Shown: positions 20,314-23,655, numbered from the stretch's first letter. The stretch: DNA of 64,000 nucleotides from an uncultured Aquimarina sp. (GCA_947496355.1 CANMCO010000012.1:9705-73704); one strand, 5' to 3'. Numbers and translations are program-made. Notes: a model not told the origin generated them from the letters alone.

Positions 20314-20355
20314 AAACAAAAAAATCCGGTTGATGTAACCGGATTTTTTTTGTTT
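20314..20355 (-). terminator. Intrinsic terminator after the micro-peptide cluster
   Basis: aaacaaaaaaatccggtt-gatgt-aaccggattttttttgttt inverted repeat with T/A tracts on both sides. Confidence 0.75.
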
Positions 20356-20368
20356 GCAATTCTATATT

Positions 20369-20527
20369 TTAGCACTTCTGACATAATTCATACTCTAGAC
20401 CTCCAGACTCGTTACCTCCGGTTCCACTGCCTCCACAAGCACAGCTTCTTTCTCCTCCATTAACTTGTGTTAAAACCTTTCTTTCTAATGTTTGTACCCC
20501 TTCTAAGTTTAAAATGTTTGCTAACAT
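20369..20527 (-). CDS. Double-glycine-leader micro-peptide (52 aa), not in ORF track
   Basis: MLANILNLEGVQTLERKVLTQVNGG|ERSCACGGSGTGGNESGGLEYELCQKC; leader paralogous to three other ORFs in the window. Confidence 0.75.
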   Translation of the reverse strand: MLANILNLEGVQTLERKVLTQVNGGERSCACGGSGTGGNESGGLEYELCQKC

Positions 20528-20538
20528 AATTTATACGT

Positions 20539-20574
20539 TCCCTGAGCGTCTAAAGACATTCAGGAATTATGTCT
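20539..20574 (-). promoter_or_regulatory. Conserved 36-nt upstream element, copy 1
   Basis: Transcript strand agacat-aattcctga-atgtct-ttagacgc-tcaggga; homologous to 20934-20969 and 21214-21249. Confidence 0.6.
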
Positions 20575-20681
20575 GCATCGTTTTAAGTACCACTTAACTC
20601 TATTATGCTATTCTGTTTATTGATTGATAATAAGCAAACATATTGTCTGTAAAAATTTTTAAACAACACTTTCCGATTATA

Positions 20682-20720
20682 CTAAATCCAAGGTTACAAC
20701 ATTAGTCTCCTTGGATTTAG
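20682..20720. other. Stem-loop downstream of micro-peptide 20751-20906
   Basis: ctaaatccaagg ... ccttggatttag perfect 12-bp inverted repeat. Confidence 0.55.
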
Positions 20721-20750
20721 AAAGAAATATTAAAATAGATTACTATTCTT

Positions 20751-20906
20751 TTAATAACAATCACATCTCCCGGTATTGCCATCTGGCTTTCCACCTAAAG
20801 GTCCACAAAGAGCGTAACAGTCTACTCTCCAACCTCCATTTATTGACTTTTGTTCTTTGTTACCCAACTTCGTTGCGTTTTCTAACTTTAAAATGTTTTC
20901 TAACAT
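20751..20906 (-). CDS. Double-glycine-leader micro-peptide (51 aa) with defensin-like Cys spacing, not in ORF track
   Basis: MLENILKLENATKLGNKEQKSINGG|WRVDCYALCGPLGGKPDGNTGRCDCY. Confidence 0.75.
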   Translation of the reverse strand: MLENILKLENATKLGNKEQKSINGGWRVDCYALCGPLGGKPDGNTGRCDCY

Positions 20907-20933
20907 AATTTAAGTAATTTAATAATTTATTTT

Positions 20934-20969
20934 TTTCCAAACATTTATAGACAGTCAGAAACTCTGTCT
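20934..20969 (-). promoter_or_regulatory. Conserved 36-nt upstream element, copy 2 (most diverged)
   Basis: Transcript strand agacag-agtttctga-ctgtct-ataaatgt-ttggaaa. Confidence 0.55.
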
Positions 20970-21044
20970 TAATTTTCTTATTCTTGATAAGACAAAGAAT
21001 ACGTCTTTTCTACAAGTCCTTTTTAAAACTATATGATGTCACTT

Positions 21045-21185
21045 TTAATGACACTGGCTGTTTGTGCTACCTGTATGACCATAGCAGTTTAATCCAGGAG
21101 CATGCCATTCTCCACCTTTTACAATGACTTGTTGATTTCTGTCTAATTGATTTACCCCTTCTAAATTTAAAATGTTTGCTAACAT
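21045..21185 (-). CDS. Double-glycine-leader micro-peptide (46 aa), not in ORF track
   Basis: MLANILNLEGVNQLDRNQQVIVKGG|EWHAPGLNCYGHTGSTNSQCH. Confidence 0.75.
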   Translation of the reverse strand: MLANILNLEGVNQLDRNQQVIVKGGEWHAPGLNCYGHTGSTNSQCH

Positions 21186-21213
21186 AATTTATATTGTTTA
21201 ATAATTTATACGT

Positions 21214-21249
21214 TCCCTGAGCGTTTATAGACATTCAGGGATTCTGTCT
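21214..21249 (-). promoter_or_regulatory. Conserved 36-nt upstream element, copy 3
   Basis: Transcript strand agacag-aatccctga-atgtct-ataaacgc-tcaggga. Confidence 0.6.
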
Positions 21250-21352
21250 ATATCCTAGTATTAAATGAGAGCATAATAAATTAATTATAATCGCATTGTT
21301 AAGAACAAATATAGAAGCGGTTATAGGTAAAAGACAAATGAAGTAAGTGGCC

Positions 21353-21384
21353 TTTCAAGGAAAACACACTGTGTTTTCAAGGAA
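21353..21384. promoter_or_regulatory. Tandem TTTCAAGGAA sites, candidate operator
   Basis: TTTCAAGGAA at 21353-21362 and 21375-21384 (22-bp period), between divergent peptide and TPR-AraC genes. Confidence 0.55.
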
Positions 21385-21478: not shown

Positions 21479-23197
21479 ATGCCATATACCATTCTATTGT
21501 TTCGTATAAAAAGTAAGTGTTTTATACTATTTCTATTATTTAATAGCCTTAATCTTTTTGCATTTCAAACCTCTTATGATAGCTTACTTACCAAAGAGTA
21601 TTCATATCTAAAAAAAATGGTTTCCAAGCATGTAAGGGACTCTTCAAAAGCAAGTATATATATCCAATCGCATCTTTTTAAAGCAAAAAAAGATGTTGAT
21701 ACTACCGAAATAGTGAATGGGTTTTATTATTACTCAGGTATTACTAAGGATGAAAAAATTAAAGAAAAATATCTGGATAGTATGATTCTATTCTCAAAGA
21801 ATCTAAAAACAAAACATTATCCAGCACTTGCATATTATAGAAAAGGAAAAATAGAGTATAATAAAGGTAATTTTAAAAATGCGCTAGATTTATATCTTAA
21901 AACCAATGAAAAAGCAAAAGAATTCGAAAATACCCATCTTTTTTATGCCAGTAAAAAAAGTATAGGAATATTAAAAAGTAGGATTGGAGAACACAAAGCG
22001 GCATTAACAGAACTTAAGGAATGTCATCAATATTATTCAAAATTAAAGAAGGGTAAACCAATAAACTATTTAGGTACATTATTTGCACTGGCCGATTCCT
22101 ATAATTTGAATAAAAAGCTAGATTCGGCAACGACTATGAATATCCTTGGGTATAAAGAATCTATAGCATTTAAAAAAGAAGACTTCAAATACTACTTTAC
22201 ATTAAACGAAGGGATTAATTTATTTGATAAAAAAAACTTTACCACAGCAAGAGATAGTTTATCAATCGCTATTGAAGAGTTTAAAATTAATGACGACAGA
22301 GCCAATCTGTCTATGGCTTACTTTTTTTATGGAAAAACATTGACAGCATTAGGTAAAGAAAAAGAAGCCATTGCTGCACATATCAAAGTAGATGAGATAT
22401 TCGAGGAAATATCTGAAATTATGCCCAATAATCGAGAGAATTATGAAATCTTAATCAATTATTACAAAAAATTAGATGATAAGGATAATCAGTTAAAATA
22501 CATTCAACAGTTAATTACCGTAGATAGTGTATTACACACTAATTATCGATATCTAATGAAAGCTGTAGTACAGAATTATGATACCCCAAGATTACTTTCG
22601 GAAAAACAAGAAATTATAGATAGTTTAGAAACCGGAAAAAAAACATCGTATACAATTATTAGCATTTTGGCAATTGCCAGTCTTTTGCTATTTGTCTTAT
22701 GGTTGATTAATCGACGTAGACAAAAGCAATATAAACAGCGTTTCGAAGAACTCTATTACAAACAAGATGCTCATAAAAAAGAAGAAAATCAAACGGTATC
22801 ACATAAAGAGAAAACAAAACTTGCTATCCCAGAAGAAAGTATTAAAGAGGTTCTTAACAAATTGGCAATTTTTGAAAATGAATTAGGGTTTATCCAACCT
22901 GATTTATCAATTAATTTTTTAGCAAAGAGATTTGGAACCAATTCTAAATATTTGTCCAAAATTATTAATACCTATAAAAAGAAATCATTTAATCAGTACA
23001 TCAATGATTTAAGAATCAATCAATCAATCATAAAACTAAAAGAAGATGCTAAATTCAGGAACTACACTATAAAAGCAATTGCTCAAGAAATAGGCTTTAA
23101 TACTACGGATGCTTTTTCTAAAGCTTTTTACAAACAAAACGGAATCCATCCTTCCTATTTTATAAAAGAATTAGAAAAGCAGATTAAAGCTGTATAA
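21479..23197 (+). CDS. TPR-repeat, single-pass transmembrane, AraC-type HTH regulator (copy 2)
   Basis: TPR helices (GNFKNALDLYL, GEHKAALTEL, GKEKEAIA), TM IISILAIASLLLFVLWLI, AraC HTHs INFLAKRFGTNSKYLSKIIN and TIKAIAQEIGFNTTDAFSKAF; paralog of 6012-7724. Confidence 0.88.
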   Translation: MPYTILLFRIKSKCFILFLLFNSLNLFAFQTSYDSLLTKEYSYLKKMVSKHVRDSSKASIYIQSHLFKAKKDVDTTEIVNGFYYYSGITKDEKIKEKYLDSMILFSKNLKTKHYPALAYYRKGKIEYNKGNFKNALDLYLKTNEKAKEFENTHLFYASKKSIGILKSRIGEHKAALTELKECHQYYSKLKKGKPINYLGTLFALADSYNLNKKLDSATTMNILGYKESIAFKKEDFKYYFTLNEGINLFDKKNFTTARDSLSIAIEEFKINDDRANLSMAYFFYGKTLTALGKEKEAIAAHIKVDEIFEEISEIMPNNRENYEILINYYKKLDDKDNQLKYIQQLITVDSVLHTNYRYLMKAVVQNYDTPRLLSEKQEIIDSLETGKKTSYTIISILAIASLLLFVLWLINRRRQKQYKQRFEELYYKQDAHKKEENQTVSHKEKTKLAIPEESIKEVLNKLAIFENELGFIQPDLSINFLAKRFGTNSKYLSKIINTYKKKSFNQYINDLRINQSIIKLKEDAKFRNYTIKAIAQEIGFNTTDAFSKAFYKQNGIHPSYFIKELEKQIKAV

Positions 23198-23240: not shown

Positions 23241-23253
23241 TTTTCCCTGAAAA
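23241..23253. promoter_or_regulatory. Palindromic candidate operator TTTTC-cct-GAAAA
   Basis: Same core and same 53-nt spacing to a TATATTTG box (23300-23307) as at 7759-7771/7818. Confidence 0.55.
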
Positions 23254-23475
23254 CAGGTAATAACCCATAAAAAAAACACGATTTCATCGTATTACTAATT
23301 ATATTTGATTTAGAAATAATAAAAACATTTGCTAAAGACATTTACTAGTAATTTGGGAAAATAAAATATCTATAAAGTAATATGTCGTTTCAATTTTTGA
23401 GGGTATGAAAGGGTTAAAATGTAGCTTATATTAATTTATTATTTCTGGTCAAAACCTTTAAATGAAAAACAAAAA

Positions 23476-23655
23476 ATGAAAAACAAAAAATTAAGTTTGC
23501 GGAAAATAACAGTCACAAAATTGGATAACTTACATAATATTCAAGCAGGTGCTCCTGTTTGCCCTACTCTTCCACACGAGAGCTGCACAACAAAACCTTT
23601 TGAAGATGAAGATTTTACAGAAAATGGAACCTTAATAGGTCCCGGGTTTATTTAA
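23476..23655 (+). CDS. Small leader-core peptide (59 aa), not in ORF track
   Basis: MKNKKLSLRKITVTKLDNLHNIQAG|APVCPTLPHESCTTKPFEDEDFTENGTLIGPGFI; paralog of 23675-23875. Confidence 0.75.
   Translation: MKNKKLSLRKITVTKLDNLHNIQAGAPVCPTLPHESCTTKPFEDEDFTENGTLIGPGFI

Follow-up and report, generated by a model that had tools for sequence, protein, structure and literature searches.

We describe a small RNA pseudoknot found in a 64,000-nucleotide (nt) stretch of DNA from an uncultured Aquimarina sp. (GCA_947496355.1 CANMCO010000012.1:9705-73704; the whole stretch is called the window below). The element is 36 nt long and occurs three times on the minus strand, once before each of three short open reading frames (ORFs) for peptides with a double-glycine (GG) leader, as an earlier note on this sequence had reported. 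Judged from comparison of many copies, it is a real RNA fold that is present in hundreds of copies across marine flavobacteria. We propose, as an evenly balanced judgement, that it is a cis-acting leader pseudoknot which works at translation initiation, either as a docking site for the 30S ribosomal subunit or ribosomal protein S1, or as an insulating element, in hosts that do without the Shine-Dalgarno (SD) sequence.

With position 1 defined as the first A of AGACA, helix A (stem S1) is formed by positions 1-6 and 16-21, and helix B (stem S2) by positions 9(10)-15 and 30-35(36). The earlier note had read both helices correctly, helix A as AGACAK/MUGUCU and helix B as UUCCUGA/UCAGGGA, UUUCUGA/UUGGAAA and UCCCUGA/UCAGGGA in the three copies, and from copy 1 to copy 2 pair 6-16 does change in a compensatory way, U-A becoming G-C, with a G-A mismatch at this pair in copy 3. 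Its statement that the helices overlap and cannot form together was wrong, as 1-6/16-21 and 9-15/30-36 have no nucleotide in common. Their strands follow one another in the order 5'A, 5'B, 3'A, 3'B, which is the topology of an H-type pseudoknot. Stem S1 comprises 6 bp (AGACAN/NUGUCU) and stem S2 6-7 bp of free sequence; loop L1 is 2-3 nt long (AA(A)), there is no L2, and L3 is a conserved, A-rich loop of 8 nt (NUAAAUGN). An L1 of 2-3 nt over the 6-7 bp of S2 and an L3 of 8 nt over the 6 bp of S1 satisfy the usual geometric rules for loops that span the grooves of such folds. As a lone hairpin, each helix of the window copies has a folding energy of about -3.6 to -9 kcal/mol.

In most family members positions 26-28 of the element, within L3 (e.g. 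20944..20942 in copy 2), are a conserved AUG, a triplet which is reportedly depleted near start codons in Bacteroidetes (PMC6847099) and is here presumably hidden inside the fold. An upstream ORF beginning at this AUG was considered and rejected, because the frame is inconsistent and the AUG is missing where L3 carries AGG or ACG. A further hairpin, P0, abuts S1 directly in most of the other genera, and in about half of the copies outside the window. Its 5' arm (-17..-13) is followed by a bulge at -12, its loop reads CGCG or UGCA, and its 3' arm spans -5..-1, with covarying pairs at -14/-4 (C-G 54, U-G 16, U-A 10) and -15/-3 (U-A 69, C-G 10, U-G 6). P0 is thermodynamically weak, and it is absent from the window copies and from the four main Aquimarina copies of this genome. 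In other genera (loci L006-L034 and L155-L176) the region from -26 to -1 before AGACA holds a semi-conserved AACAATAT and a near-palindrome on TCGCGA, TTGCAA or GGCC, which corresponds to P0. The four central bases of P0 are almost always self-complementary, something that a simple RNA hairpin would not need.

With three paralogous copies, the earlier note had regarded the covariation as thin, a difficulty that a fourth and fifth copy in the same genome and about 200 distinct copies elsewhere have resolved. In an alignment of 84 rows, standard pairs fill 94% of the cells. Six pairs of helix B show two-sided changes (4-6 covarying pairs across the analyses), with pair 12-33, for example, occurring as U-A 38, G-C 20, C-G 12 and A-U 4 times. 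The first five pairs of helix A are invariant, and its sixth, 6-16, is found as C-G 38, U-G 27, G-C 6, U-A 5 and A-U 1. The observed covariation score was not matched by any of 500 shuffles, and pairing collapses to 24-53% when the partners are slid by 1-3 columns. Aligning 28 diverse copies independently with MAFFT led to the same result (97.6% of cells paired).

These results were checked in two ways. A structure-free test, which computed mutual information with average product correction for all 4465 column pairs in 176 ungapped copies, ranked 12-33 and 11-34 at the top, with 6-16, 10-35 and 13-32 as the next non-adjacent pairs; the only other high scorers were adjacent columns, in the P0 loop and the start codon. 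As the copy finder had required helix-B complementarity, copies were also recounted using only AGACA-N11-TGTC and a downstream GG-leader ORF. The result was unchanged: all six helix-B pairs are formed in 149 of 196 copies and at least five in 180, compared with 23% for six out of six when partners are swapped between copies. By comparative standards, helix B can be considered proven. Both helices of the H-type fold are backed by compensatory change, S1 more thinly than S2, and what the larger alignment displays is covariation, in helix B and at pair 6-16, and not conservation alone.

The earlier note had also suggested a cis-regulatory RNA, which is supported by the compensatory changes in both helices, by the position of most copies between genes of the same strand, and by the excess of G-U over A-C on the coding strand. 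At paired positions in the 196 copies collected without the helix-B filter, G-U occurs 120 times and A-C 24 times; duplex DNA, or the other strand, would make the two equivalent, so the sense-strand RNA is the folded molecule. Helix B also differs in sequence among the copies of one genome, each copy being complementary to itself, which a single DNA-binding protein is not expected to give.

A DNA element, either part of a promoter or the inverted-repeat operator AGACA-N11-TGTCT which the earlier note had offered as its alternative, is therefore extremely unlikely. AGACA and TGTCT are indeed invariant inverted half-sites, a TPR-AraC regulator is encoded next door, and a palindromic TCGCGA box lies just upstream in some genera. 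However, the half-sites are 16 bp apart from centre to centre, which places them on opposite helix faces and out of helical phase. Together with this spacing, the strand asymmetry and the lack of a fixed promoter position do not fit the operator of a dimeric transcription factor; the copies begin 20-35 nt after stop codons and have their tight relation with the start codon, and the palindrome that is likely to be the regulator's operator is another one, lying farther upstream. A two-state RNA switch with mutually exclusive helices, the earlier note's other inference, we consider very unlikely. Its premise falls with the finding that helices A and B have separate nucleotides and are thus compatible as a pseudoknot, and both are retained in nearly every copy. 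An alternative can be drawn in which helix B grows inward through G-U-rich pairs and takes up the 3' strand of helix A, but position 16 covaries with position 6 and not with 29, as it would in such a nested hairpin. Nor did RNAalifold, which found only helix B, reveal any conserved element pairing with the spacer or start codon.

Most copies are intercistronic. An ORF on the same strand ends no more than 120 nt upstream in 157 of 185 evaluable copies (85%), and there is none in the remaining 28. This ORF has at least 150 codons in 69 of the 185, with its stop at a median of 34 nt before the element, and is short, often another peptide, in 88. The long ORFs typically encode a C39-ABC transporter (ending ...KNQLELGN) or HlyD (ending ...YQLKNVLK), and their stops are often 20-35 nt away. 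The Bacteroidetes sigma-A -7 consensus is TAnnTTTG, at position -12 to -5 (PMC9723704). A fixed promoter of this type was rejected, as the box occurs within 200 nt upstream in 18 of 207 copies, compared with 23 of 207 on the opposite strand. The motif 'GAAC', resembling that of extracytoplasmic function (ECF) sigma factors, was rejected as a -35/-10 pair, its distance to AGACA drifting from about 10 to 27 nt. Some Aquimarina knots stand before 'MKKKKL...' peptides (loci L071, L146, L078, L060 and L038), and upstream of these knots GTAAC-N17-AC(G/A)(T/A)A is conserved; this sequence is similar to ECF-sigma promoters and may serve these units as their promoter.

The genome from which the window comes has five copies of the element. 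The fourth, on another contig, precedes the genes for a 56-aa GG-leader peptide and a C39-like/VKOR protein and carries a double change from U-A to C-G in helix B; the fifth is on contig C9. A covariance-model search of the Flavobacteriaceae, as the earlier note had suggested, was made with a first model built from only four Aquimarina copies, with helix B as its structure, against one genome from each of 201 genera. It found matches, often clustered, in 16 genera. In 28 of 30 matches inspected, the ATG of a GG-leader peptide ORF followed 20-28 nt downstream, and as the search had made no use of this gene association, it provides independent validation of the family. When one genome per species was scanned with the sequence pattern, more than 120 stretches came up, mostly from Aquimarina, Tenacibaculum, Dokdonia, Winogradskyella, Bizionia, Olleya, Kordia, Lacinutrix, Algibacter and Leptobacterium, with clustered copies also appearing sporadically in Roseivirga, Saprospiraceae and a Bacteroidales metagenome-assembled genome. 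Isolated hits of the pattern in other phyla, Chloroflexota and Desulfobacterales among them, did not pass the covariance model and were dismissed as chance matches. With a model made from 84 copies, 34 of 40 Aquimarina genomes were found to have between 1 and 19 copies each, and 7 of 401 genomes were positive in a phylum-wide sample, almost all of them Flavobacteriaceae.

The neighbouring genes are those of peptide export. When 302 ORFs from 88 loci were clustered, the recurrent families were a C39-ABC transporter (26 loci), a VKOR-thioredoxin fusion (23), HlyD (20), a TPR/CHAT protein (14) and a TPR-transmembrane (TM)-AraC regulator (11); RecQ was the only other. No RNA-binding protein recurs among these ORFs, and none of the recurrent families is ToxN-like.

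The knot keeps a very tight distance to the start codon (27±2 nt). Counted from the 3' end of S2 to the ATG, this distance is 26-29 nt in 153 of 207 copies, and 193 copies fall within 24-31 nt; a tolerance of ±2 nt is about that of a Shine-Dalgarno sequence. In the window, the gap of 11-28 nt given in the earlier note was confirmed by measurements of 11, 27 and 28 nt. Anchored on the ATG, the 24-nt spacer has a GC content of 10%, with G at no more than 6% at every position. Adenine is found in 88% of copies at -3, in 90% at -12, and in 72-73% at -11 and -13. In Flavobacterium johnsoniae, ribosome profiling and reporters have shown that A-3, A-6, A-12 and A-13 promote initiation, and the region from -11 to -14 is thought to be close to protein S1 (PMC6847099). 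A-3 and A-12 of the spacer match these positive determinants, which suggests an optimised initiation region. A terminator or attenuator was considered for the element and rejected, as there is no U tract directly 3' of helix B and no terminator after it. A 5' pseudoknot with an adjacent 27-nt spacer, predicted to be unstructured, has the layout of a tisB-type standby site.

A role at initiation could work as follows. The compact, rigid knot would sit at the 5' edge of the ribosome footprint, where the 30S subunit or protein S1 could dock or stand by. It would also insulate the open A/U initiation region from the coding RNA upstream. A tiny and usually internal cistron could thereby be strongly translated, though the ribosomes ignore SD sequences. 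While the comparisons establish the fold and its conservation, its action as sense-strand RNA, its association with the peptide genes, its spacing and the optimised initiation region, we infer both the ribosome or protein S1 as the partner and the direction of the effect. A more specific version, in which the knot is a high-affinity landing pad for protein S1 or the 30S subunit, held at a fixed 27 nt and replacing the SD helix for small internal cistrons made in large excess, is tentative and on balance doubtful; if true, it would be a structure-based initiation signal in bacteria, similar to an internal ribosome entry site.

Several points weigh against a role at initiation. An invariant S1 is unusual for a purely structural element and points to a specific partner, which could equally be a repressor or a small ligand. 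Support for helix A is thinner than for helix B, with one covarying pair and five invariant ones. The 11-nt spacer of copy 1 breaks the 27±2 nt rule; it was apparently shortened by a deletion between two direct TATAAATT repeats, and this copy may be expressed differently. The tight spacing could partly come from common descent of a module of knot, spacer and leader. In its own genome the knot is found at only 5 of about 20 GG-leader peptide genes, so it is not needed for the translation of such genes in general; it is an accessory feature of one leader-peptide lineage, other classes having different leaders. Finally, transcription through the element is presumed from sequence.

The invariance of S1, L1 and L3, which demands either a specific partner or a tertiary triplex, keeps two other explanations live. 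The knot might be a signal-responsive operator, that is, a riboswitch aptamer or the site of a repressor or activator protein, which toggles peptide production. S1, L1, L3 and the S1/S2 junction are invariant while S2 covaries, as is seen in triplex-forming pseudoknot aptamers, the preQ1-I riboswitch is similar in size to the 36-nt element, and the operator of T4 gene 32 has a comparable layout of a pseudoknot and then an unstructured A/U region. The peptide genes are accessory and conditionally useful, which would suit such control. Yet the element has no match in Rfam even at E<=10 and no expression platform, since the spacer and AUG are unpaired and no terminator follows. No candidate binding protein recurs in the 88 loci, and the downstream genes show no metabolic logic that would lead to a ligand, all of which makes an operator unlikely, if still a serious contender. 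We think it less probable again that the element acts in RNA processing and stability, although bacteriocin operon transcripts are known to be processed in Firmicutes. A polycistronic RNA for transporter and peptide would then be cut just upstream, and the folded 5' end (knot and P0) would, with a 3' hairpin, protect an abundant short mRNA. Such processing would suit the intercistronic position of most copies, the hairpins, with or without a U tract, that follow many of the peptide genes, and the semi-conserved single-stranded AACAAUAU before P0. A protective 5' structure, however, requires neither an invariant stem nor an AUG at a distance fixed to ±2 nt, and P0, besides its weakness, is missing from the window copies.

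The features of the window are listed in Table 1. The three peptide ORFs share the leader MLxNILxLE...xxGG, and their cores are short and mostly Cys-rich. The window contains three matches to the core pattern of the element, AGACA-N6-CTGA-N-TGTCT, where chance alone would give 0.49.

Table 1. Pseudoknot copies, spacers, peptide genes and nearby signals in the window, with positions counted from its first letter
Feature	Position	Strand	Remarks
TPR + transmembrane + AraC-HTH regulator	21479..23197	(+)	divergent from the array
Palindrome TTTTC-CTT-GAAAG	21364..21352	(-)	51 nt upstream of the -7 box at 21313..21306
Candidate -7 box TATATTTG	21313..21306	(-)	perfect match to Bacteroidetes sigma-A TAnnTTTG; upstream of peptide gene 3
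Pseudoknot copy 3	21249..21214	(-)	first of the three-gene array; S1 21249..21245 with 21233..21229
Copy 3 helix S2	21241..21235 with 21220..21214	(-)	copy scores 66.9 bits (covariance model)
Spacer copy 3	21186..21213	(-)	28 nt, A/U-rich, G-poor; holds TATAAATT twice
Peptide gene 3	21185..21045	(-)	46 aa, leader MLANILNLEGVNQLDRNQQVIVKGG, 2 Cys in core
Pseudoknot copy 2	20969..20934	(-)	S1 20969..20964 with 20954..20949, pair 6-16 = G-C; 58.3 bits (covariance model)
Copy 2 helix S2	20961..20955 with 20940..20934	(-)	includes two G-U pairs
Spacer copy 2	20907-20933	(-)	27 nt
Peptide gene 2	20906..20751	(-)	51 aa, leader MLENILKLENATKLGNKEQKSINGG, 4 Cys in core
Second box TATGTTTG	20642..20635	(-)	upstream of copy 1
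Pseudoknot copy 1	20574..20539	(-)	S1 20574..20569 with 20559..20554; S2 20566..20560 with 20545..20539
Copy 1 loops	L1 20568..20567, L3 20553..20546	(-)	copy scores 59.9 bits (covariance model)
Spacer copy 1	20528-20538	(-)	11 nt
Peptide gene 1	20527..20369	(-)	52 aa, leader MLANILNLEGVQTLERKVLTQVNGG
Intrinsic terminator	20350..20318	(-)	14-bp stem then U run; ends the three-peptide array

From the candidate -7 box of peptide gene 3, a transcription start (unmapped) is predicted near 21300, which would place copy 3 at about +51 to +87 of the transcript. The fourth copy is preceded by the same layout of palindrome and box (L004 1677..1665 and 1627..1620). The palindrome at 21364..21352 is likely to be the operator of the neighbouring TPR-TM-AraC protein, itself a likely transcriptional regulator of the array that acts outside the RNA element. 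Between peptide genes 2 and 1 the minus strand has a 10-bp hairpin without a U tract (20684-20718; AAATCCAAGG-N14-CCTTGGATTT), which might serve for processing, stabilise the RNA or act as a leaky terminator within the array.

Signals were also noted beside peptide genes that lack the knot. The other side of the regulator has, at 23242-23307, a TTTTCCCTGAAAAC palindrome together with a TATATTTG box ahead of a peptide pair at 23476 and 23675, a layout of operator and promoter that mirrors the first without a pseudoknot. On contig C9 (about 96.7-99.5 kb, plus strand) there is an array of six MKSKKKLSLKKM...GG peptide genes, also without the pseudoknot; its leader, conserved but of a different kind, combines a CGAAATTCTAGAATTTCG palindrome with a TATGTTTG box and a TCAAAGCGCTTTGA hairpin, and seems to be a second, separate GG-peptide leader module.

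Bacteroidota translate without SD pairing. The peptides served by the knot must presumably outnumber the products of their export genes. Binding of the ribosome or protein S1 would make the knot a bacterial initiation signal of a new kind, and binding of a ligand or regulator would make it a new switch for the production of antimicrobial peptides by abundant marine bacteria. As a practical marker, it can point to short peptide genes missed by gene callers, it could serve as a portable expression part for Flavobacteriia, and it is directly testable with the existing reporter and ribosome tools of F. johnsoniae.

No family of Rfam 15 matches the element; the window was searched at E<=10 and 20 loci of other genera at E<=1, in a check that took in preQ1, SAM-II/V, guanidine-III, fluoride, glutamine-II and Flavo-1. 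Full-text literature searches, which included papers on bacteroidetocins and on the transcriptome of F. psychrophilum, also found no description of the motif. The 36-nt pseudoknot repeats of type III toxin-antitoxin systems (ToxI-like), which stand head to tail in tandem just before the gene of an endoribonuclease toxin, were considered and rejected, as the copies here are single, about 280-395 nt apart, and each stands before a peptide ORF. The closest resemblance in genes is to the bacteroidetocin loci (Coyne et al. 2019, PMC6671954), where Cys-rich peptides with a GG leader are likewise encoded together with a C39-ABC transporter and a thiol oxidoreductase. The element, by contrast, is mainly found in Flavobacteriaceae and serves only a subset of peptide genes, and a term search of that paper for an RNA element (UTR, secondary structure, intergenic, promoter, upstream) gave no mention.

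The small pseudoknot riboswitches (preQ1-I/II/III, SAM-II/V and guanidine-III) are alike in size, H-type topology, conserved loops, a covarying stem and position in a 5' leader, and the Downstream-peptide/glutamine-II motif of cyanobacteria also precedes tiny ORFs. The element differs from all of these in that their covariance models do not match it and no expression platform overlaps its start region, to judge from RNAalifold and the terminator search. The product of T4 gene 32 is a single-stranded nucleic-acid binding protein that binds its own operator, in which a compact 5' pseudoknot is likewise followed by an unstructured A/U tract leading into the start codon. Here, however, the genes encode peptides for export, and there is no gene for an RNA-binding protein in the vicinity.

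The closest functional parallel may be the E. coli tisB +42 mRNA, in which a 5' pseudoknot and the adjacent single-stranded region form a high-affinity site for protein S1 and the 30S subunit (PMC7708055; Romilly, Lippegaus and Wagner 2020); an H-type pseudoknot obtained by in vitro selection (SELEX) also binds protein S1 at nanomolar affinity (cited in PMC7708055). Both leaders place a pseudoknot next to a single-stranded region ahead of a small peptide, which is toxic in the case of tisB, with the 30S subunit or protein S1 as the partner, proposed in our case, and an initiation-promoting role. They have no sequence relationship, and the ribosome-binding site of tisB is sequestered about 100 nt away, whereas here the open region is directly 3' of the knot. 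The hosts also differ, being Bacteroidota whose ribosomes ignore the Shine-Dalgarno sequence, and binding to protein S1 or the 30S subunit would here be by analogy. Leader pseudoknots are a known kind of element, of which this one is a new, uncatalogued family. It is unusual in that a stem which never varies and a set distance to the AUG occur together with many copies in each genome, SD-less hosts and a bacteriocin-like cargo.

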